A DNA stretch of 64,000 bases from a virus: IMG/VR virus record IMGVR_UViG_3300030503_000287; one strand, 5' to 3'. The translations under genes were made by a program, and so were the position numbers. Positions 33,121 through 63,796 of this stretch are shown piece after piece. The notes under the pieces are model-generated. The model saw nothing but the letters and a program-made list of their open reading frames with translations. It did no database searches and had not been told where the DNA came from. Positions within the stretch are counted from its first letter, which is position 1, and each line of letters begins with the position of its first letter.

Positions 33121-33882
33121 TTATATTCCTTGTGTCTGTGTGGATCGTTTGATCCCAGCCATCATCTTATCGATGATGTTATCGATGTATGGCGGTTCGT
33201 ATTTCTCAAGTGCGACAAACCTGTCTTTTCCATGAGTAACCGCGTCACGGTGGCATATAAGCCATCGTTCTGTTTGCCACTGAAGCGAATTGTCTTCCAA
33301 CTTTACCTGACGCTCTGGCATACAATATCTGGCAATCAAACTGAAATGTCTACCGTATTGTTCTTTGAACGCGCCTTGAAAAGCTGGTTGCCACATAGTT
33401 CGCTTAGTGTCGGTGTCCTCCCTAAACGTCTCATGAGCCGTAAAGAGAACATGTTTTCCTGAGTGTCTGAATTGTGTAGTGATATTGTTCATGCTTGTGA
33501 GGACAATCCCCCACTCCCGTTGGGAAGGAACTTGTATCTTTCCACGTTCACAGATCTCTCGGAGTATCATTCCTTGCAGTTCTGTTACTGTATCTACAAC
33601 GATCATGTCAAACTCTGATTTGTGAATGTTCCACCAAGCGATAGCGGTATTGTATTCTGCTATTGTCTGGACAGTCCAAACCTTACAAAGATCACGTCGC
33701 AAACCATATTTAACAGCCCATGCATTTGCTGAAACTGCTCCATCGTCAATGTCGATAAGTAAAGTTCTGTATTTCTGACTAGAACCTACAAGAACTGTCT
33801 TACCAACTCCGGTGCCACCGTAGATTATTCCTACAACCGAGGTGTCACTTATATTTTCTAGAGAAATTGGCCCATTGGCCAT
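33121..33882 (-). CDS. Sak4-like / AAA_24-type recombination ATPase
   Basis: Walker A GIIYGGTGVGKTV and Walker B MIVVDTVTEL. AAGGAGG RBS. Confidence 0.65.
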   Translation of the reverse strand: MANGPISLENISDTSVVGIIYGGTGVGKTVLVGSSQKYRTLLIDIDDGAVSANAWAVKYGLRRDLCKVWTVQTIAEYNTAIAWWNIHKSEFDMIVVDTVTELQGMILREICERGKIQVPSQREWGIVLTSMNNITTQFRHSGKHVLFTAHETFREDTDTKRTMWQPAFQGAFKEQYGRHFSLIARYCMPERQVKLEDNSLQWQTERWLICHRDAVTHGKDRFVALEKYEPPYIDNIIDKMMAGIKRSTQTQGI

Positions 33883-33938
33883 CCACTACCTCCTTGGGTA
33901 TTGTGGTTTCGAAGGCAGTCTTTGACTGCCAACGCTTT

Positions 33939-33967
33939 AGTATATGCTACAAAAATCTAGTTGTCAA
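33939..33967 (-). promoter_or_regulatory. sigma70-consensus promoter
   Basis: Minus strand reads TTGACA, 17 nt, TATACT. A 7-bp hairpin (33914-33930) lies in the leader before the RBS. Confidence 0.65.
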
Positions 33968-33999
33968 GCATGGATTTTTGTTTGTATTTACACCGTACA

Positions 34000-34212
34000 T
34001 TAACTGTCAACAACGTCTTTTTCTCTAAGCCCTACAGTTAGAGAAATGCCTAATTGGCATACAAAGCAGTAACCCGTAAAGGCGAGAGTCTCCCCAAAAT
34101 CACGACTATCATTTAAATTCAACCATATTGAATTGTCACACCCAGGACATTGTTCAGATATGGTTGGAAGGGTTAGTCTTTTGGGCATTTTTAATTCAGG
34201 CATCAGTTCCAC
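34000..34212 (-). CDS. zinc-ribbon protein
   Basis: 70 aa with CPGC ... CFVC. Confidence 0.45.
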   Translation of the reverse strand: MELMPELKMPKRLTLPTISEQCPGCDNSIWLNLNDSRDFGETLAFTGYCFVCQLGISLTVGLREKDVVDS

Positions 34213-34540
34213 TTTCTGTTGATATTAAAAATACTTGATTTTCGAATGCTCCATTTTTGACACGTTTTGTAGTAGCTGCGGCAGCTATTTCATGAAAACC
34301 AAAAGTTGCTTTCATTAAGGCATGTAAAACAGTATACATATCTACCAACTCTTCAATAGTGTGATGCTCAGCGAATTCATTAGTCTCTTCAATCAATTTT
34401 GTGATAAGACAATCTACAAACTCTCTTCGCTCCAGAGTACGAGTTCTACAGGTATTGCCATTTTGTTTTATAATATCAGGAATATTATCTCGAACAAGTT
34501 TGTTGTGAATTGTTGTTGTTTTAGACATTCTGGGTCTCAT
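34196..34540 (-). CDS. MazG/HisE-like nucleoside triphosphate pyrophosphohydrolase
   Basis: KLVRDNIPDII ... LIEETNEFAE ... EELVDMYTVLHAL. Confidence 0.6.
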   Translation of the reverse strand: MRPRMSKTTTIHNKLVRDNIPDIIKQNGNTCRTRTLERREFVDCLITKLIEETNEFAEHHTIEELVDMYTVLHALMKATFGFHEIAAAATTKRVKNGAFENQVFLISTESGTDA

Positions 34541-36440
34541 ATATTGAATCTAGATGTGCCAACACCACCTTTATATCCCATGGATTGATTGTTGATGGCA
34601 TAGTCTTAGAACATTCATTTGGGTATCTTTTACGGTTCTGGCCCCAACCTGTGAAGTTACCACTTTTACTTTCACGATTCTTCAAAGCAATAGCTTGATG
34701 TTCAGTTGGTGAGGCATGAGGGGGGTTGTTTGCCAATAACCCATCATTTAACCCTAAATCCTTTTCATAACTTCGCGAACCATCGTGACCGAGAACTGAG
34801 ACTCTGGCACATCGGCCAGCAGAGACAGATATGAGAGATTCTAATGAACGCAATTCATATCCCCATTCATCAGTGAGGATTCCGCAGTACATCATAGTCT
34901 CAACTTCTTCGTCACTGATATAAGGTAAGTGCCAGTTATGAGTTTCTATTTTCTTTGGAATCGATTCATCATATGCTTCCATTGCAAGAAAAGAAGGTAG
35001 TTGTATTTCAGGTTGAGCCAATTCATGACATCGCAGCGTAAAATAATTCTGCCAATCTGTGGCAGTCGCAATTATGGTTTGCCATGCAAATGGCTCTATA
35101 AGACGATTTGCAATGGACTTGTGGACGTTCAAATCTTTTGATAGGTAATTTGCAGCAAGCACCATTTGATCTCTGGCGTTTAACCATGCTCTAATTGCTA
35201 AACGTTCATCTTCAACACTTAATGGTTCTCCACCCTGCATACCTTTTTTGTTAGTCGCCCACACAAGAGGGATAAAAGGAGTTTCCATTACCTGTTTAAT
35301 TTTACGTTCAACAGGAATAGCACGACTGGATGCACTGTTCCTACTATTATGAACTACAATACCATTCGCGAAAAAGTTTGGAAATTCTCCGGCAATTTCA
35401 AGATCATATGTGTCTTCAACTCCACGATAATTGATTGAATCAACTGTTATGAAGTCAACATAATATTCAAATCCTGTTTGCCAACCTTGAACTTCGTGCT
35501 CTTTTCTATGGCAACCTTCACAAAGTAGGGTAACATTGTTTTTGTCGGCTACCAAATCAGGTCGTAAATAACGTGGTTGAATATGATGAATGCGCAGTTG
35601 ATCAACAGATCCACATTTCTGACAACAACCCATTTCAGCTATAAGTTGAAGCTTGGCTTTTCTGTTCCACATAATATAACTATGTTGTTCTGCTCTTGTA
35701 AAACGATGAAGTTTTTCTGTTTCTGGTTTTCCCAATCGTCGCACGGCTATTCTGGTAGTGCCTGGAATAATATTCTCGATTGTAACATAACCAGTATCTG
35801 TCCAAATTTTATGATCTTTACTTCCGGCTATTTGGTGTCTTCCGGCCTTTACTTCAAAAATTTCTTTACGACCTGAATAGAAACAATCAACAACAGTTGA
35901 ATATTGTATTTTGTTTGTATGTTCATTGATCTGTCGGATCGTCATGTCTTTGAGTCGATATTGAATTGGTTGGTTATTAACTCGTGGACGCTCGTAAAAC
36001 TTCTTAAAATCAGACCCCAACACCAGCCATTGCCGACCATCCAATTCTTTCACGGCTTTTAACAAACCAGATCTACAAGATCCATTTAGTCCAGAATAAT
36101 TGCTGAACCCAAATATGTTTTTGAGTTCCATTGTAGTATAAACACTATTATCATCCAATAACGACATATCGAGTATTTTATGGTTTTTTGACGGTCTTGG
36201 CTGTGCTCCTTCAGTCCATTTACGATAGAAATTCTCGATTGAGATAGGATACTTGGTGGCACTACTTTCACGTTTTTGCGCTCTTGGGCTACTGAATTCT
36301 AATATAGAATCTCCAGCGAGACAAAGAGATCTGTGTGTGTTAAATTCACATAATACAATACGAGGTATTACGAATTCAAAGGTAGTGATCCGTGCTCCTG
36401 CTGATGATATAGAATCCCTGATTATTTTTGCTGAATACAT
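34521..36440 (-). CDS. thyX: flavin-dependent thymidylate synthase (ThyX-like) interrupted by an intein
   Basis: Exteins join to EFNTHRSL|SRNSASSRAIPVERK (ThyX RHR...S....S.R motif). The C-terminal half is collinear with ThyX. Confidence 0.8.
   Translation of the reverse strand: MYSAKIIRDSISSAGARITTFEFVIPRIVLCEFNTHRSLCLAGDSILEFSSPRAQKRESSATKYPISIENFYRKWTEGAQPRPSKNHKILDMSLLDDNSVYTTMELKNIFGFSNYSGLNGSCRSGLLKAVKELDGRQWLVLGSDFKKFYERPRVNNQPIQYRLKDMTIRQINEHTNKIQYSTVVDCFYSGRKEIFEVKAGRHQIAGSKDHKIWTDTGYVTIENIIPGTTRIAVRRLGKPETEKLHRFTRAEQHSYIMWNRKAKLQLIAEMGCCQKCGSVDQLRIHHIQPRYLRPDLVADKNNVTLLCEGCHRKEHEVQGWQTGFEYYVDFITVDSINYRGVEDTYDLEIAGEFPNFFANGIVVHNSRNSASSRAIPVERKIKQVMETPFIPLVWATNKKGMQGGEPLSVEDERLAIRAWLNARDQMVLAANYLSKDLNVHKSIANRLIEPFAWQTIIATATDWQNYFTLRCHELAQPEIQLPSFLAMEAYDESIPKKIETHNWHLPYISDEEVETMMYCGILTDEWGYELRSLESLISVSAGRCARVSVLGHDGSRSYEKDLGLNDGLLANNPPHASPTEHQAIALKNRESKSGNFTGWGQNRKRYPNECSKTMPSTINPWDIKVVLAHLDSIYETQNV
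35346..36323 (-). mobile_element. intein with HNH homing-endonuclease domain (326 aa)
   Basis: Starts CLAGDSILEF. Internal CCQKCGSVDQLRIHHIQ ... NNVTLLCEGCHRKEH. Ends TYDLEIAGEFPNFFANGIVVHN with +1 Ser. Confidence 0.8.
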
Positions 36441-36462
36441 ATACGTACTTTCTTATAAAATT

Positions 36463-36550
36463 TGGACCGCAACCAAGGATTCGAACCTGGATCAAACCCC
36501 AATCTCCTTCACCATACGCGCGTACAGTGAGACCAACTGTGCTTGAACTA
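36463..36550 (-). ncRNA. tRNA-like 3' fragment (T-arm and acceptor-CCA mimic)
   Basis: Minus strand ends ...CCAGGUUCGAAUCCUUGGUUGCGGUCCA. The T-stem carries a mismatch or bulge. I could find no convincing 5' acceptor partner or anticodon arm. Confidence 0.3.
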
Positions 36551-36693
36551 CGACTACCGGAATCGCACCCCATTAACCATTATGGGTATTACGGTCACAT
36601 TGTGTTTAAAATTTCAGGCCGTCGTTCCCAAATACTCTATCACCCCGAAAGGAGACAGCCGCTAAAGCAGTATCCAAGCTATATCCCGAAATT

Positions 36694-37055
36694 TGGTGGA
36701 GGCGGGGAGAGTCGAACTCCCGTCTTCAGTACCCATATCTCAATATATCCTACAAGCATAGTTCGTATTTATAATGTTAGATTTTCTACGAACAAACCAT
36801 CTAACAAGTTTGAATCTATTTTCCTAGCATCCAAGATTCTGAGTGATGCTTAATCAAAGAAACGTAAGGTTTCAATCCCCACTACTTCCGAAGAAGTAGT
36901 GCAATCAGACTTAGGCGGCTGCAGCGAAAGCGACAGGGCGAACGGTCTTAAAGGTTGTGTTTGCGTTTGTTTTTAGGTCGGATTCGTATACTGGCCAACG
37001 ACCATCCAGTGCTTGCTTATTGAGTATCCTGATCTGAATCGATACCTATCGCCCC
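36694..37055 (-). ncRNA. ssrA: tmRNA (one-piece)
   Basis: 5' GGGGGCG pairs with 3' CGCCUCC-A-CCA, including G3:U70. T-arm GGGAG-UUCGACU-CUCCC. Tag ORF from GCA 36964 encodes ANTTFKTVRPVAFAAAA-TAA. Confidence 0.9.
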
Positions 37056-37064
37056 CGTATCTTT

Positions 37065-37358
37065 TTACCGTTCTATCAACTTCTTTATACTCTCAATATT
37101 TGGACCGGTAAGAGAATAAATATTTTTTGAGCCAGTGCGTTCACAATCGACAAGTTTGGCCTGTTTGAGAATACGCAAGTGACCAGAAACAGCGCCTTGC
37201 GCCATATCGAGTGAAGTAGTTATATCATTAACAGACTTTGAATTTTCTGATAATAGAGCTACGATACGAAGCCTTACCGGATGTGCAAGTGCAGAACATA
37301 TGTCTGCAAGATAATTTATTGTCTGATTGTCCATGTTTATTACCCTATATCTTTTCAA
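37065..37358 (-). CDS. ArsR-family transcriptional regulator
   Basis: LADICSALAHPVRLRIVALL ... AVSGHLRILKQAKLV wHTH signature. Confidence 0.75.
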   Translation of the reverse strand: MKRYRVINMDNQTINYLADICSALAHPVRLRIVALLSENSKSVNDITTSLDMAQGAVSGHLRILKQAKLVDCERTGSKNIYSLTGPNIESIKKLIER

Positions 37359-37548
37359 AATCTACATACTGATGAATTTCGTGAGTTGGTTTTGCCCAGG
37401 TTGCCGTAAATATTTCTTTGGCCCCAGATTCGAATTGAACTATAGCTTGTGTAAGGTTTCTGGTAACTATTAATTCTGTCACAATTCCATCGCCATAAAC
37501 ACTAACATGAACTCGTAGGCCAACTCGCACCTCCGCAACTTTCAACAT
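37345..37548 (-). CDS. hypothetical protein
   Basis: 67-aa ORF upstream of the ArsR gene. Confidence 0.45.
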   Translation of the reverse strand: MLKVAEVRVGLRVHVSVYGDGIVTELIVTRNLTQAIVQFESGAKEIFTATWAKPTHEIHQYVDFEKI

Positions 37549-37569
37549 AATTTTATCCTAATAAAATAT

Positions 37570-37655
37570 TGGTGCCAAAGACGAGACTTGAACTCGTAAG
37601 ACCTTTTGGGTCGGAAGGGTTTGAGCCCTCTGTGTTTACATTTCACCACTCTGGC
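37570..37655 (-). tRNA. tRNA-Leu (CAA), class II
   Basis: 86 nt. Acceptor GCCAGAG/CUUUGGC. Anticodon arm GAGGG-CUCAAAC-CCUUC. Variable-arm hairpin GACC-CAAAA-GGUC. T-arm ACGAG-UUCAAGU-CUCGU. CCA encoded. The D-loop lacks GG. Confidence 0.75.
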
Positions 37656-37780
37656 GTTAAATCTTACCCAAAAGAGAAATAGGGTGGAAAAGTTTATAAA
37701 TCTTGGACCAATTCCTATTTCTCTCCCGGTTCGCTGCAGCAAGGGAGATTTTATTTTTAGGTTACACCCTAATTAACCTA

Positions 37781-37856
37781 TGGTGTCAGCGGTAGGAATC
37801 GAACCTACGATTACCTGATTTTGTCAAGATGTCCTATCCAATTAGACTACACTGGC
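37781..37856 (-). tRNA. tRNA-like gene with non-canonical anticodon loop (ACAAAAU)
   Basis: 76-nt cloverleaf with CCA. T-arm GUAGG-UUCGAUU-CCUAC and a GG-containing D-loop. The anticodon loop has A32, C33 and A34-A36, with a U:U pair at the top of the stem. Confidence 0.55.
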
Positions 37857-37981
37857 ATAAAATGGCTGTCTATTCCAGCCTGTCAACGACCTGTTATCAT
37901 TATTGCGGCTATATTCGGTCGCTGAACATAACCGCTATTAACTCCATACCGTCTTATAGTTCAACATTTTAAAACCTCATT

Positions 37982-38058
37982 TGGCGGGCTGTGTTGGTTT
38001 CGAACCAACTTCTGCCGGTTTTGGAGACCGGAATGCTAACCCCATGCACCAACTACCC
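37982..38058 (-). tRNA. tRNA-Trp (CCA)
   Basis: 77 nt. Anticodon arm CCGGU-CUCCAAA-ACCGG. T-arm GUUGG-UUCGAAA-CCAAC. Discriminator G and CCA encoded. One A:A mismatch in the acceptor stem. Confidence 0.85.
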
Positions 38059-38195
38059 ACAATTCTATATTTTTAAATTCCTAAGCTGTTCGATCCAACA
38101 TTTAACTCTTTCCAATGAAGAGCACTTAGGAAGTTTCCGGGTCATGGCAAAGAGGTTCCCGGTTAGGTGCCTCTTCGCTCTCCGAAATTTTTTCT

Positions 38196-38263
38196 ATGGA
38201 ACGAAAGGAATCGAACCTTCACTACCTGCATGCTGGGTGTGCTCCCAACTACACTACACCCCA
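38196..38263 (-). ncRNA. degenerate tRNA-like gene with truncated anticodon arm
   Basis: 68 nt. Acceptor UGGGGUG/CGUUCCA (three G:U pairs). D-arm GUGU-AGUUGGGA-GCAC. T-arm GAAGG-UUCGAUU-CCUUU. Only 17 nt (CCCAGCAUGCAGGUAGU) where the anticodon arm plus variable loop should be. Confidence 0.4.
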
Positions 38264-38266
38264 TAG

Positions 38267-38731
38267 AAATTGTTTCCTCTGATATACATACCGGATTGTC
38301 TGCGCAGAGGTTTTCACCATGCTTTGTTTTAGTAAAACCGGTCTACAACTAAAACCTGTTCTATCAGAGAAATCCTCAAATCTTACAGGGTGCCGAATTC
38401 TTAATCCCAACACCCTGTTCTGTGTTTCGCTGTCACCAGCACACATATCTTCAAATCTGAGGGCTGCCAACCTATTCTCATTCTTTACAACGCTTTTCGC
38501 GTGACTCACTATGAGTCGGAAACAGGAACCATTACGGCAGCGCCAGTTCTGTTGCGCTCGATGTCACCGCAGCTCACGAGTCTTACCTGTTCCCACAGAC
38601 AACATATAGAGCTACTGGTAAGCGCCCAGTCGGCAAACATAAACGCTCACCAGTAGTTATTGCGCTTCATTAGAATGAAGCTAGCTATCTATGTCTTGGA
38701 AAAGAGGCTTTTCAAGCATAGACAACATATT
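38267..38731 (-). ncRNA. candidate structured non-coding RNA, class unknown
   Basis: About 465 nt without a convincing ORF, inside the tRNA island. Several 6-13-bp helices. Two helices need G:U pairs that exist only in the minus-strand transcript. Confidence 0.4.
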
Positions 38732-38887
38732 TTAGTGTGTTTTGAACAATAACGGAACAACAATCATTATTGCTAAAATTAACACAATCCAACCAAAAGT
38801 TCTTAAACCGTATATAAATTCTTCATAACGCCATGCATCACCCCAATTATCATCATCAGCTGGTTCTTCTTCAAACTCACTGACCAT
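38732..38887 (-). CDS. small tail-anchored membrane protein (51 aa)
   Basis: ATG 38887 overlaps the end of the upstream gene. MVSEFEEEPADDDNWGDAWRYEEFIYGLRTFGWIVLILAIMIVVPLLFKTH. Below the ORF-track cutoff. Confidence 0.45.
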   Translation of the reverse strand: MVSEFEEEPADDDNWGDAWRYEEFIYGLRTFGWIVLILAIMIVVPLLFKTH

Positions 38888-39083
38888 CTTGTTTACTCTT
38901 TTTAGCGCGCCGATTTATATGCCCAATACTTGTAGCGGCCTTTGCTTCAGCGCTCGTAAAGGAATGAGCTACACCAAGTTTATGAGCAGTTACTCCACCC
39001 ATAGCTGCTATTTCCTTACGTCGTTCAGGAGACATTGCAGCAAGACCGCGTTTCTTTTTAACTTCTGTTATTTCTATTGCCAT
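38877..39083 (-). CDS. KGG-repeat (YciG-like) stress-protein homologue
   Basis: RGLAAMSPERRKEIAAMGGVTAHKLGVAHSFTSAEAKAA resembles general stress protein repeats. Confidence 0.55.
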   Translation of the reverse strand: MAIEITEVKKKRGLAAMSPERRKEIAAMGGVTAHKLGVAHSFTSAEAKAATSIGHINRRAKKSKQDGQ

Positions 39084-39104
39084 TTTTTAATCCTAAAATT
39101 TCGA

Positions 39105-39140
39105 GCAGAGGGCGAATCCCGTCAGAAAAACTCCCTCTGC
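39105..39140. other. 8-bp GC-rich hairpin with 20-nt loop
   Basis: gcagaggg ... ccctctgc, followed by TTTT on the plus strand and by UCGAAAUUUU on the minus strand. Terminator or processing site. Confidence 0.3.
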
Positions 39141-39193
39141 TTTTGATCTACCAGCACCAACTGGTTTACTTCTAAAACTACCATCGTGTAATC

Positions 39194-39300
39194 CAGGAAG
39201 CTCAGGAATCGAACCTGAAGTGTTAGTCATCAAACCTCGATCAGCGAGCAGAATTGAACTGCCTTATCTTTCTACATGGTGATGTAACGATGCTAGTTAC
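39194..39300 (-). ncRNA. tRNA-like element(s) that do not fold into one cloverleaf
   Basis: Perfect T-arm UCAGG-UUCGAUU-CCUGA (39202-39218). A second arm GGCAG-UUCAAUU-CUGCU. A 5-bp/7-nt hairpin GUAAC-UAGCAUC-GUUAC. No matching 5' acceptor strand found. Confidence 0.3.
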
Positions 39301-39551
39301 CTCGTCTCGAAGTATTAAGAAGATTTACGTTATCTCTTAACAGTGTCGTCGTCCAGGCTCAATTACTTACTTCTTTAACCATGTATTTCTTTACTGGCTC
39401 AGTTTTCCGGTGTTACCCATATCCCCATACTGATTTAATGCACCGACGGGCACCGACTACAACCATCTCTCTTCTCTTATGTATCTATTATACACCTTCT
39501 CATCAAGAATTGCAAGTCTTTTTGAACAAATTTGAGAAAAAATGTCAAAAA

Positions 39552-39734
39552 TTATCTTGTACACCACGAATCGAGACCGGGAACGAAAATTCTACTTTCC
39601 TTACCACAAACAGAACACACCCAAATATGAAGACCAGGTTCTAACTTTATCATATTGGGAGGGTTGTGTTCTCGACTCTGACATATGTATAGCTCTTTTG
39701 GCTTTTCACTTTCTTTCAATGATCTGAATGGCAT
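39552..39734 (-). CDS. zinc-ribbon protein
   Basis: 60 aa with Cys18 and CSVC. Confidence 0.45.
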   Translation of the reverse strand: MPFRSLKESEKPKELYICQSREHNPPNMIKLEPGLHIWVCSVCGKESRIFVPGLDSWCTR

Positions 39735-39736
39735 TT

Positions 39737-40078
39737 TTATTCCTTTCCTGCGTTCAACATTTCTTCGAGTATGTTTTTATTAACTACATAATTATGAGCT
39801 TTGATTGAACAAAGAGTAGTTGTGATATTGTTATAAGATAAGGCCAAACTCTCCATCGCTTGAAGAGCTTCTTTTTTAGCCTTATTAGCTCTGTATCTAT
39901 ATGGTCGTAGAAGATAGTCTAAATATGACTTCTTTTGATAAGAGACGTTCATAAGACGTGACTTCTCTTCGTAGGTGTGATTGTTATATGAGGGATATCT
40001 CAGCCATTCCTTATAAGCCGCGTCACATTCTCTTCTGGCGGCAGCTACTTCTTCAATTGTCGGAAGTACATAAGTCAT
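39737..40078 (-). CDS. hypothetical protein
   Basis: 113-aa ORF in the array. Confidence 0.5.
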   Translation of the reverse strand: MTYVLPTIEEVAAARRECDAAYKEWLRYPSYNNHTYEEKSRLMNVSYQKKSYLDYLLRPYRYRANKAKKEALQAMESLALSYNNITTTLCSIKAHNYVVNKNILEEMLNAGKE

Positions 40079-40403
40079 TCATTTTCTCCACTAAATATTT
40101 CTCACAAGATCTGCTATTACTGCGACACAGTTCCATACCTTCTATTTCATAGGCTACGTTATCTTCGACACGTACAAGTACAAGCCAGGGCTTGACATAT
40201 ATCTGACAACCTATCCCAGCGAAGCACGACCCACTATTCTTCTTCCATATCTGATATATTCCATTTTCATGACGTTTAAATATCTTACCTGAATAGTCCA
40301 CTCCTGTTGTGGTTATTACACCATCCCATTCTCGAAAAGGTTGTCTACCTTGCTGACTTGCAAATATTTTATCGTTAAACATTTTTATCCTTATCATTTC
40401 CAT
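40053..40403 (-). CDS. hypothetical protein
   Basis: 116-aa ORF in the array. Confidence 0.5.
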   Translation of the reverse strand: MEMIRIKMFNDKIFASQQGRQPFREWDGVITTTGVDYSGKIFKRHENGIYQIWKKNSGSCFAGIGCQIYVKPWLVLVRVEDNVAYEIEGMELCRSNSRSCEKYLVEKMNDLCTSDN

Positions 40404-40561
40404 TCATGGCGTATCCAATAATCCCCAATAGAGTTATGATCATGCGCTACATAAAATGCTTGTTCACATTTACAGTTCAGGCATTGTCTGATAGTTGGTT
40501 TACCTACTGCATCGAACTTAATATAGTGCCAAGAGTGTCCAAATATACAGAGCCAACTCAT
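40394..40561 (-). CDS. small Cys/His protein (55 aa)
   Basis: ATGA coupling with the upstream stop. MSWLCIFGHSWHYIKFDAVGKPTIRQCLNCKCEQAFYVAHDHNSIGDYWIRHEWK. Below the ORF-track cutoff. Confidence 0.5.
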   Translation of the reverse strand: MSWLCIFGHSWHYIKFDAVGKPTIRQCLNCKCEQAFYVAHDHNSIGDYWIRHEWK

Positions 40562-40767
40562 TTTATACTATCCTTATCACGAGCAGTTATGATATCTGTT
40601 ATCAACTGTTGATGTTGCTTCTTCAACTCTTCAATTTCATGAAAAGTCTTGATTTCGTCTTCAATGATTTTCTTCCAGTCTTTAAATCGTTTGCGATCAA
40701 ACAGTATGTAATTAACTAAAGCAACCAACAAACCTGATGCGAAACCAATCACAAATGCATTATCCAC
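40558..40767 (-). CDS. small membrane protein
   Basis: 69 aa. N-terminal hydrophobic helix, then a charged helix. Confidence 0.5.
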   Translation of the reverse strand: MDNAFVIGFASGLLVALVNYILFDRKRFKDWKKIIEDEIKTFHEIEELKKQHQQLITDIITARDKDSIK

Positions 40768-42430
40768 CGTACACTCCTACCGTATCTGGACTCAATCGAG
40801 TCGCCAAGTCTTCATGTGCTGAAAGCGCATCATAGATTTTTTCATCAATAGTATTACGCGCAATTAGATCAATATAATGTACAGGTTGCTCCCTCCCTAT
40901 TCTGTGACTTCTATCCTGCGACTGAGAGCGCAACAAATAGCGCCAGGAGTTTGAGTGGTAGATATGGAAATCTCCGGTTTGAAGATTAGCCCCAAATGCC
41001 ATCTTCTGTATCTGCATAGTCATTATTTGTAAACCACTACTACGGTCCAGAAACTGTTTTTTGTATTCATCTCTAGTATCGTCTTTCGTACTCCCAGTAA
41101 TAGCTACAGTACCTACTATTTCATTGAGTTCGCGCTGAAGTCTGTAAACCTCATGGTTGTATCTACACCAAATTAATACCTTAATACTTGAATCACCACG
41201 AAGTCTTTCAATAGCAAAATTGCGTATCCAGTCAATCTTGTAGGAATCAAGTTCTGTAAGTACAGGTTCGGGTTGTGCCATATCTTCCCATATAGGAGCA
41301 TGACCACCAGCAATTTGATGTAACCGGAGCCATATAATTCCTTCACCGGCCAGACTTAACTCATTCCCCAGCGCAGACTCACCTTCTACCTTTACTCGTT
41401 CGTATAACTCACGGACGCTGGGAGGAAGGTCTAATCGTACTACTTCAAATGTCTGAGGCGGCAAACCAAGACATGTGGCTTTTGTAGCCCTATACCACTT
41501 AGGGCCGAGACGTGTAATAAGTCCGACAGGATCTATACATCCAACAGGTTTTAAGATAGTTTTATTGCTTAGAATTCGCTGGGGAACCATGTTTGCATAG
41601 CGATGTAAAAATTCATCATATGTCTCAGTAATATTCTCTGGGTCCACTATTTTCATCTGAGAATAAAGATTGCCTACGTTCTGGCTCATTGAAGTACCAG
41701 TTAGTTCAATCCGAATTCGTGGTGGACGAGCCAGTAAATGTGCAGCACGTGTCACTCTTGCGGACGTATTGAATAGATACCATGATTCATCAAAAGCCAC
41801 TACTTGAGGATCAAATCGTTCTAAGTATGGCCCCATCTTGGCGACTACTTCATAGTTGACAAAGACGATACCTTCCGTTGCTCGCTCCAACATTTTAATT
41901 CTAGTAGCAACAGGCTTGTTGATCGCAAGATTAGTAATATTAAGGTCATAGTTCTGTAATCGACCAATTTCCGCAATCCATTCCCCAGCGAGAGAACGAG
42001 GTAGTACCACCAATATGCGCTGTGCATTCCATACTTTGAAGAGAACTAGGGTAGATCTTGTCTTACCCGTACCCTGTTGTGATCCATTGAACTGGGATGT
42101 ATCGAGAGCAGCTAATGAACAAGATTCAAGTTGGTGAGGGAGAAGGTTCGCACCTAAGTAATCACTCCATTGCTTCACATATTCGACAGTATGAGGATCT
42201 CCTTGCATGAGACTGGAACGTACCTGCCTGTAAGCTGGTGTAGCATCATCTGGAATTGCAATAGATTCAGCAGCAAGTAATAATATACGGCTTGGTTTAA
42301 ATATCACAAATGGCGCATAAAAAGGACCTCCGCTCCGAGAATCCGAAATTTTACGGAGGTCTTTCAGTATCTTTTCATCGCCATGTGCTATCACGACATC
42401 AAGGCTTTGGTTGTAGTCTAAGGTATACAA
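40760..42430 (-). CDS. SNF2-family helicase
   Basis: GSQQGTGKTRS (motif I), VAFDESWYLFN (motif II), QSQDRSHRIGR (motif VI). Confidence 0.85.
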   Translation of the reverse strand: MYTLDYNQSLDVVIAHGDEKILKDLRKISDSRSGGPFYAPFVIFKPSRILLLAAESIAIPDDATPAYRQVRSSLMQGDPHTVEYVKQWSDYLGANLLPHQLESCSLAALDTSQFNGSQQGTGKTRSTLVLFKVWNAQRILVVLPRSLAGEWIAEIGRLQNYDLNITNLAINKPVATRIKMLERATEGIVFVNYEVVAKMGPYLERFDPQVVAFDESWYLFNTSARVTRAAHLLARPPRIRIELTGTSMSQNVGNLYSQMKIVDPENITETYDEFLHRYANMVPQRILSNKTILKPVGCIDPVGLITRLGPKWYRATKATCLGLPPQTFEVVRLDLPPSVRELYERVKVEGESALGNELSLAGEGIIWLRLHQIAGGHAPIWEDMAQPEPVLTELDSYKIDWIRNFAIERLRGDSSIKVLIWCRYNHEVYRLQRELNEIVGTVAITGSTKDDTRDEYKKQFLDRSSGLQIMTMQIQKMAFGANLQTGDFHIYHSNSWRYLLRSQSQDRSHRIGREQPVHYIDLIARNTIDEKIYDALSAHEDLATRLSPDTVGVYGG

Positions 42431-60492: not shown

Positions 60493-60560
60493 GGAGTATA
60501 ACCTTTGGATTTGTGACACTATTATAATGAGTGATTCAAAAAATGTCAATGGTGGTAGTT

Positions 60561-60632
60561 GATAGTTGGTTTGATAGTTGGTTTGATAGTTGGTTTGATA
60601 GTTGGTTTGATAGTTGGTTTGATAGTTGGTAA
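60561..60632. repeat. 12-bp tandem iterons, 6 copies (gatagttggttt)
   Basis: Copies start at 60561, 60573, 60585, 60597, 60609 and 60621, with a degenerate copy just upstream. The core ttgatagtt recurs at 60863 and 61461. Confidence 0.95.
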
Positions 60633-60862
60633 TCCTTTATATCCTATTCTTGTATTGATACCTGTAAAAATGGCTCTGTATGGTCAGGAGATAGTATAAA
60701 TGGTCGTATAGTGTGTAAATTGTTGTTAATCGTGTGTGCGCGGACGTGAGGCGGCAAAGAATGGCATTGTGGATTAATGTCGTTGGTCTTTAATTTTCCA
60801 CCTAGATGATTTGTGATTAGAAAACTGTATTGAAAATATTGAAAATAGGGAAAATGTTATTG

Positions 60863-61530
60863 TTGATAGTTAACGATACATTTATTGAGAATAAAATCTA
60901 TATTTCATATGAACGATTTTTTTTAAAAAGTTTAATAAGTTAAGTTATGTATCAACAAGTGTTAGTAAATGAGAGATTTGATAAGTGTGTTGTATGACAC
61001 ACTCTTGACGGGGTTACACACGTAGAGACTGTAAAACGTAATATTATTGAGAAATAGATTTTTATAAGTTAGAGAAAAGTAGAATCTAAAAAATGGAAAA
61101 GATCATATGAAATATAGATTGTATATATAGGGTTAAAGATACCCCCCCGGGGTATATATATATGATATTAAGTTCTTTTTTATTATATATATAATATATA
61201 TATTATATATACAAACAAATGTTCCAATGTATATATATATCTTGCTTTTACACCCCATATTCGGTTTTCTCTATACTATAACCTACTCTTCAATAATTAT
61301 TCTTCTTTTGTTTCACCCATTTCTTCCTATTTCCTATCAATTTTTAAATCTATATTTCATATTTAATTGATTTCTTGATTTTGTAAAATCTATAAGGTCT
61401 ATATATATAAGCACTCCAAGAGTGTGTCACGTAACACACTTATTGATTGATTGTCGTTTGTTGATAGTTATTAACAATTAAATAGTGCTATTTCATCTTG
61501 TTATGATTGTTGTTCATATGAAATAAATAT
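60863..61530. other. AT-rich non-coding region with nested inverted repeats (origin-like or packaging-like)
   Basis: 17-bp IR at 60896-60912 / 61103-61119, with further copies at 61348 and 61514. 27-bp IR at 60981-61007 / 61417-61443. Palindrome ataccccccc-ggggtat at 61139-61155. (TA)n-rich tract at 61153-61250. Confidence 0.5.
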
Positions 61531-63468: not shown

Positions 63469-63796
63469 TGAATGTTTTCCTTAATTCTGGATTGTTAGGC
63501 CATGTCGGACTTGATTCGCAATGATTTGGCCTGTTTGCAATTTGACCCTTCTTCGTGACATAGAACAACGTGTGTGCCAACCAGTCTTTGTCGTCGGCAA
63601 ATTGTACCGGGTTATTTGACTTAACCCATGCCGGTTTGTGAATACCTGTATATCTATGTACAAACATGGATAAAACTTCTTTTTGAAGTTGAGGCGGCAA
63701 ATCCTTACCTAATACTTGCATCATATATTCTCCTATCCAAAAATAAATATTGCCACTGCTAGCATTATGAACATGCTGAATGCAGTAAGACAACAT
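63458..63796 (-). CDS. hypothetical protein
   Basis: 112-aa ORF. Confidence 0.5.
   Translation of the reverse strand: MLSYCIQHVHNASSGNIYFWIGEYMMQVLGKDLPPQLQKEVLSMFVHRYTGIHKPAWVKSNNPVQFADDKDWLAHTLFYVTKKGQIANRPNHCESSPTWPNNPELRKTFNAS

Follow-up and report, generated by a model that had tools for sequence, protein, structure and literature searches.

The window analysed here, a stretch of 64,000 nucleotides (IMG/VR record IMGVR_UViG_3300030503_000287), belongs to a phage-like contig some 97 kb long. Several metagenomes of peat and bog yielded this contig in identical form, the source samples including JGI 3300031233, JGI 3300030520 and ENA ERZ27249690. Beyond about 17 kb the genes lie on the minus strand and constitute a replication module, which holds a primase/helicase, a DnaE-type polymerase and an exonuclease together with an SNF2 helicase and a Sak4-like protein, and a 6.9-kb RNA island is located between the genes of the last two (Table 1). 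Read from 5' to 3' on the minus strand, the island starts with five small genes, a degenerate tRNA-like element and two small CDSs of 68 and 51 aa, followed by the 465-nt segment studied here (the candidate). On its 3' side come another tRNA-like element, tRNA-Trp, tRNA-Phe(AAA), tRNA-Leu, a 67-aa CDS, an ArsR-type regulator, the tmRNA (37056-36694) and ThyX, and the candidate shares its strand with the flanking genes, the tRNAs and the tmRNA. The earlier note had placed this stretch inside a phage tRNA/tmRNA island, which was borne out. The product of the 51-aa CDS has a C-terminal hydrophobic tail, and a KGG domain is present in one of the few weak relatives of the 68-aa protein. If co-transcribed with these two CDSs, the candidate would be their 3' untranslated extension. 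Elsewhere in the island, tRNA-Phe (37781-37856, minus strand) carries the unusual anticodon AAA where GAA would be usual, and ThyX (34521-36440, minus strand) is split by an intein with an HNH endonuclease domain, as marked by Pfam on the gene called on contig L002.

Table 1 Features of the RNA island, its neighbours and the predicted domains of the candidate.
Feature	Positions	Strand	Remarks
SNF2 helicase	40760-42430	-	replication module
RNA island, 6.9 kb	33882-40760	-	between SNF2 helicase and Sak4-like gene
Possible island transcript start (putative): nearest upstream sigma-70-like promoter match, TTGCAA-17-TATAAT, 10/12	39487-39515	-	
Second, more degenerate tRNA-like element	39193-39274	-	upstream of the 68-aa and 51-aa CDSs
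Two overlapping small CDSs (68 aa, 51 aa)	38732-39083	-	positive coding scores
Candidate: 465-nt ORF-poor segment	38267-38731	-	between the 51-aa CDS stop and a tRNA-like element
H1: predicted 19-bp interrupted hairpin	38684-38726	-	pair probability 0.95-0.99
H2: predicted 7-bp hairpin GCUUCAU-UCUA-AUGAAGC	38664-38681	-	pair probability 0.83-0.95
H3: predicted 17+3 bp hairpin, 5 G:U (helix A of the earlier note)	38612-38656	-	pair probability 0.95-0.98
HB domain: predicted 77-nt irregular hairpin, 9-bp base (helix B of the earlier note)	38518-38594	-	apical loop AACAGAACUG
Two adjacent predicted mini-hairpins, GACUCA-UAG-UGAGUC and ACGC-GAAAA-GCGU	38490-38517	-	pair probability 0.87-0.94
Predicted three-way junction, 89 nt	38374-38462	-	pair probability 0.88-0.97
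Predicted 3' domain, closing 11-bp helix UUUCUCUGAUA/UAUCAGAGGAA (38362-38372 / 38274-38284)	38274-38372	-	pair probability 0.55-0.78
tRNA-like element directly 3' of the candidate	38196-38263	-	Rfam tRNA 37.2 bits
Rest of the RNA island, co-oriented: tRNA-Trp, tRNA-Phe(AAA), tRNA-Leu, two small CDSs (67 aa, ArsR-like), tmRNA	36694-38058	-	
Sak4-like protein	33121-33882	-	replication module

The candidate stretch is supported as non-coding. None of its ORFs, all of 86 aa or less, matched Pfam, and codon-usage scores were negative for every one of them and lay below those of all 31 long genes. The 86-aa ORF gave no tblastn match in the phage records, and an exhaustive HMMER search of 1.84 billion representatives returned the ORF itself, a translated tandem repeat (P0026) and one weak match (E 7e-4, about 30 residues, in a 2188-aa protein). 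The match to P0026 was rejected as an artefact, since nine weak stretches had been summed over a translated tandem repeat. On four independent contigs (L002-L005) the gene callers left the candidate empty. The absence of a convincing ORF, as read from the letters in the earlier note, is therefore confirmed, no ORF of the stretch having coding support. Neither promoter nor terminator matches were present inside the candidate. The nearest sigma-70-like match upstream (Table 1) is, as we infer from sequence only, a putative start of the island transcript, in a region where the number of promoter-like sites is not above shuffle expectation.

To place the candidate among known RNA families, Rfam 15 was searched at gathering thresholds and then at E<=10 with permissive filters on segments of 1.2 kb and 0.49 kb. 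Nothing reached the gathering threshold in 38267-38731, and at E<=10 only three sub-threshold snRNA/snoRNA matches were returned there, which were taken as chance. The weak U6atac match (15.7 bits against a gathering score of 33) was dismissed as chance. As a control, the same searches recovered the tmRNA at 36694-37056 (109.7 bits), the three tRNAs and the tRNA-like element. At E<=10 the models for ROOL, GOLLD, RNase P RNA, group I intron, group II intron, 6S RNA and tmRNA found no match inside the candidate, nor did the Rfam tRNA model. At a threshold of 80%, ARAGORN made a single poor 'tRNA-Ala' call at 38501-38583, which has no T-loop consensus. By eye, the earlier note could not match the stretch to RNase P, group I or group II signatures, and Rfam agrees for 38267-38731. 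Its suggestion that a ROOL- or GOLLD-like RNA would be expected here was not upheld: no Rfam model matched, and the predicted fold consists of modular local stem-loops with a weak closing helix. The candidate matches no known RNA family and, in its predicted fold, is modular rather than ornate.

The minus strand of the candidate folded to a minimum free energy of -165.5 kcal/mol, compared with -128.7 +/- 5.9 kcal/mol in dinucleotide shuffles (z -6.25), and 0 of 100 shuffles were as good; the plus-strand fold had a z of -3.71. There are 26 G:U pairs among the 155 pairs of the minus-strand fold and zero A.C 1x1 mismatches, while the plus strand folds with 9 G:U pairs, most of them in short helices unrelated to these, and the helices shared by both strands are truncated there. 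When DNA parameters were used, both strands folded alike (z -4.6 and -4.9), which means that the asymmetry of the RNA folds is due to the G:U pairs. Background windows of 160 nt were taken one per 450 nt over 47 kb of the minus strand, and the candidate had the lowest z (-6.6) among the 104 windows of this size on the same strand (background mean -0.37, sd 1.38). The structure is beyond chance, is unusual for this genome and bears the signature of selection on the transcribed strand. In this respect the claim of a functional minus-strand RNA in the earlier note stands in part: its helices carry a signature of RNA-level selection on that strand, which is also the strand of the neighbouring tRNAs, tmRNA and genes. 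On the minus strand, the island's remaining non-coding parts also show significant structure (z -2.1 to -3.6). Since these other spacers are also rich in hairpins, high structure is a property of the island and not a special mark of the candidate.

Pair probabilities were computed in three sequence contexts, and they point to about eight local domains, namely three hairpins, a 77-nt irregular hairpin, two mini-hairpins, a three-way junction and a 3' domain, with pair probabilities of 0.55-0.99 (Table 1). The first hairpin, H1, begins 6 nt past the CDS stop and includes copy 1 of AUAUGUUGUCU; there is no U-tract after it, and it received no terminator call. In the HB domain the base is predicted with probabilities of 0.7-0.9 and the inner helices with 0.56-0.73. 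In the three-way junction the closing stem has 10 bp, and of its two hairpins one has 9 bp and a GUGA loop, the other 13 bp including 4 G:U pairs; the local window has a z of -5. The interior of the 3' domain is A/U-rich and has alternative pairings. A long-range helix, 38595-38611 / 38277-38303, closes the 3' two-thirds of the candidate in the MFE structure, but its pair probability is 0.1-0.4 and it is missing from the centroid; a second junction hinges on this helix. A search for loop-loop complementarity within the candidate brought up nothing that stands out and no convincing pseudoknot, and self Smith-Waterman scores for internal duplication lay inside the shuffle range. The predicted fold thus appears as beads on a string with one robust junction rather than as a single globally closed ornate structure. 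As a separate observation, the heptamer GAACAGG occurs in 3 copies in the candidate (38355-38592), all on the minus strand, and in 10 copies on both strands of the 64-kb window, an enrichment that is borderline after multiple testing; a related sequence, ACAGAACUGG, is found in the apical loop of the HB domain.

The individual helices that had been proposed for this stretch from the letters are all present in the sequence. Helix B (38518-38526 / 38586-38594) is present with 9 bp and one minus-strand G:U, and so is the perfect 8-bp helix 38385-38392 / 38411-38418, which on the minus strand, and there only, grows to 13 bp including 4 G:U. Helix A has the 13 positions described, with one plus-strand A.C that becomes U.G on the minus strand, but its second arm is at 38644-38656, 1 nt off from the 38643-38655 given before; in this register (38612-38624 / 38644-38656) the minus strand extends it to 17 bp, 4 of them G:U. 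The two mini-hairpins, GACUCA-UAG-UGAGUC (38503-38517) and ACGC-GAAAA-GCGU (38490-38502), were both found, with a predicted pair probability of about 0.9. In contrast, the helix 38276-38281 / 38305-38310 is complementary as described (cctctg/cagagg) but has a pair probability of 0, because it is out-competed by the 11-bp helix that closes the 3' domain. The 11-nt direct repeat at 38597 and 38720 is also there; a third exact copy lies at 63788, and when one mismatch is allowed there are 5 sites, a count that is reached in 9 of 100 shuffles.

The tRNA-like element that borders the candidate on its 3' side (38196-38263) has a good T-arm and acceptor stem and a shortened anticodon arm. It does not encode CCA, whereas the three canonical tRNAs all do, and ARAGORN detects it at a relaxed threshold only and misses it by default. 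Its acceptor stem is lengthened by pairing of the leader with the trailer (38261-38276 with 38184-38199). The element would be a putative RNase P punctuation site defining the 3' end of the candidate, or it may be no more than a decaying tRNA gene. In the element upstream of the small CDSs (39193-39274), the T-arm 13-mer AGGAATCGAACCT (plus strand) is identical to those of tRNA-Phe and the tRNA-like element next to the candidate; elsewhere its cloverleaf is poor, ARAGORN again responds at a relaxed threshold only, and Rfam gives 14 bits to tRNA-Sec. The spacers of the island are 110-149 nt long and all hairpin-rich, those that lie between the tRNAs measuring 125-137 nt, and no homology between them was detectable. 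We also observed a phasing of about 200 nt in this part of the island (37570-38656, minus strand): the 5' ends of tRNA-Leu (37655), tRNA-Phe (37856), tRNA-Trp (38058) and the tRNA-like element (38263) are 201, 202 and 205 nt apart, and the spacing continues into the candidate with the three-way junction (38462) after a further 199 nt and H3 (38656) after another 194 nt.

Relatives of the candidate were sought in several collections. Blastn in 'distant' mode with 38100-38900 and 36600-38300 found no match in 50,697 phage records, and nhmmer with the candidate found none in 290 loci taken around helicase relatives and elsewhere. Scans with exact or degenerate patterns, which distant homologues could escape, were negative for three RNA/tRNA-like patterns and one tmRNA pattern in IMG/VR and for one RNA pattern in the GTDB genomes, and a covariance model of the three-way junction, run against the window and its nearest relatives, retrieved only itself. 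A pattern for the tmRNA 3' end matched more than 120 genomes across many phyla. The four contigs recovered through an exact match to the neighbouring protein show 100% identity along 801 nt, and every copy of the locus that was recovered is identical. With identical copies only, the data hold no strain variation and no covariation. Among the neighbours, the 68-aa protein has short weak relatives only, on unrelated short contigs, the search with the ArsR-like protein returned only itself, and the 67-aa protein has no phage match.

The relatives of the helicase are all at or below 40% identity, and the five nearest, at 36-40%, were checked for gene order. In four of the five (L006, L007, L286 and L290) the helicase is followed by a Sak4/AAA_24 gene, directly or after two small genes. 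Nothing lies between them in L006, L007 and L286, while L290 has an HNH gene and a small ORF there; the fifth relative (L289) has a different gene order with other genes at the site, one tRNA-Met and no match to the candidate. Since these relatives lack the island at the syntenic site, the whole 6.9-kb block is a lineage-specific insertion, and the helicase-Sak4 site is a variable hotspot in this phage group.

The candidate is very likely a strongly folded minus-strand non-coding RNA, still unproven and an orphan. We put about even confidence in the reading that it belongs to the island transcript or transcripts as a structured segment, co-transcribed and then processed, like T4 RNAs C and D in kind. 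The direct basis of this reading is the lack of coding signal and of a family match, a structure that is strong, strand-biased and modular in layout, and the genomic context; co-transcription, RNase P punctuation, stability and any trans-acting function of the candidate we infer. In the mechanism that we propose, transcription would enter upstream of the 68-aa and 51-aa genes, and RNase P would cut at the 5' edge of the tRNA-like element (38263/38264), freeing the structured segment. The freed segment could then exist as an extended 3' end on the mRNA of the 68-aa and 51-aa genes, or as a stable RNA or several of them. Its dense 13-20-bp helices would guard it against 3' exonucleases and may double as RNase III/E processing sites. 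Several points argue against the processed segment. At 465 nt it is long for a phage spacer, which favours an independent function; the aberrant tRNA-like element has its RNase P site inside the leader-trailer stem, so that cleavage is not assured; the sole upstream promoter match is weak evidence; and all copies found are identical, with no diverged homologue.

Several known systems offer partial analogies to a processed segment of this kind. T4 RNAs C and D are about 120-140 nt long. They are transcripts of the tRNA region of T4, and their roles are unknown (PMC3014915). Like them, the candidate is placed inside a phage tRNA cluster on the tRNA strand, and as a non-coding RNA it would presumably be released by tRNA processing; compared with these small RNAs, it has 465 nt and about eight domains, and the likeness drawn is one of context. 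The R sites of phage T7 are hairpins in polycistronic phage transcripts at which RNase III cuts, the spacers of tRNA and rRNA operons are likewise structured, and such spacers usually measure from tens of nt to about 150 nt. The runs of irregular 13-20-bp hairpins between genes of what would be a polycistronic early or middle transcript are reminiscent of these; the leader-trailer pairing at the tRNA-like element recalls processing stems, and all spacers of the island are structured. The candidate differs from operon spacers in its length of 465 nt and in including a three-way junction. In tRNA punctuation, for which mitochondrial transcripts and MALAT1-mascRNA are the models, RNase P acting at a tRNA-like element makes the 3' end of the upstream RNA, and the tRNA-like element that lies right at the candidate's 3' edge, with no CCA and an abnormal anticodon arm, may be a comparable arrangement. 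Those cases are eukaryotic or organellar, while the candidate is from a phage and cleavage here is putative. If the candidate is a genuine stable RNA, it would be a case in which the 3' end is seemingly set by a tRNA-like element.

It is unlikely, in our assessment, that the candidate is instead a single discrete, globally folded large RNA of a new class, ROOL/GOLLD-like in context and with a sophisticated role, for instance that of an assembly scaffold, ribozyme or anti-defence decoy. GOLLD RNAs are about 800 nt long. Large RNAs of unknown function, ROOL and GOLLD are often found near tRNAs in phages and prophages, and ROOL has 581 nt on average, six multistem junctions as well as three pseudoknots, GOLLD being longer still (PMC5737381). 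What the candidate shares with them is context only, that is, a tRNA-like element, three tRNAs and a tmRNA beside it in a phage replication module. A single ornate RNA would fit a size and stability that are exceptional for this genome, the long-range pairing of the MFE structure, the concentration of GAACAGG in 465 nt and the known position of ROOL and GOLLD beside prophage tRNAs; moreover, 465 nt of non-coding sequence kept in a compact phage genome suggests a function. Compared with ROOL, however, the candidate is shorter and has, as modelled, one robust multistem junction and no convincing pseudoknot, and compared with GOLLD it is shorter and without a covariance-model match. The closing helix on which a global fold would depend is improbable and absent from the centroid, internal repeats stay within the shuffle null, and the neighbouring spacers are hairpin-rich too. 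Unlike either class, the candidate has no family of homologues: there is none in any collection searched and the relatives lack the locus, so that it is not yet a class. Rather less likely still is the further proposal that the candidate, alone or joined to the CCA-less tRNA-like element, founds a new large phage RNA class, freed from a tRNA/tmRNA operon by tRNA-like punctuation and acting in trans. It might, for example, draw off a host RNase or RNA-targeting defence in the manner of a decoy or sponge, or be a self-assembling ROOL/GOLLD-like scaffold. A genuine stable RNA would be an unrelated addition to the short list of large structured RNAs beside phage tRNAs. As it stands, the candidate is a single-genome orphan showing RNA-level selection for structure, which neither informs on function nor defines a class yet.

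The phasing of the island suggests yet another origin, in which the candidate holds remnants of additional members of a phased tRNA array. It would comprise two stretches of about 200 nt, each once a tRNA with its spacer, in which the tRNA has decayed or turned into hairpins that are no longer those of a tRNA. The regular spacing of tRNA 5' ends that continues into the candidate speaks for such remnants, as do a segment (38419-38438) that equals the tRNA-Leu D-arm at 16 of 20 positions, the two clearly degenerate tRNA-like elements in the island and the poor 'tRNA-Ala' call of relaxed ARAGORN. We consider this improbable, for the phase match is post hoc, the ARAGORN call has no T-loop and no Rfam tRNA match exists in the stretch at E<=10. 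The spacers also show no detectable homology, self-alignment scores are within the null, and decaying pseudogenes should lose structure, whereas the candidate has the strongest structure of the genome together with a G:U bias. That the stretch encodes one or more small proteins is extremely unlikely. ORFs of 43-86 aa do exist on the minus strand, for example one of 86 aa at 38249-38509 and one of 43 aa at 38509-38640, and an identical library protein (P0025) indicates that one gene caller called the former. However, the start codon of the 86-aa ORF is GTG and its frame runs into the tRNA-like element, gene callers placed nothing in the stretch on the four contigs mentioned above, codon usage is against all of these ORFs, and apart from the repeat artefact and one weak match they have no homologues beyond themselves. 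Very unlikely, too, is an element acting at the DNA level, in which the inverted repeats would bind proteins, be sites of recombination, signal single-strand initiation or form an origin. Its place within the replication module, with the SNF2 helicase on one side and the Sak4, primase and polymerase genes on the other, and the significant folding of both strands with DNA parameters are in keeping with this, but every wobble position is in favour of the transcribed strand, relatives do not have this accessory insertion, and a region with iterons and AT-rich repeats at 60550-61530 resembles an origin much better. The surrounding region at 60520-61530 (minus strand) is an AT-rich non-coding stretch of about 1 kb with six tandem copies of the 12-mer CAACTATCAAAC, (TA)n runs and a CCCCGGGGGG palindrome, and it also contains a perfect sigma-70 consensus promoter (TTGACA-17-TATAAT); by its sequence, it looks like an origin/iteron region with an early promoter.
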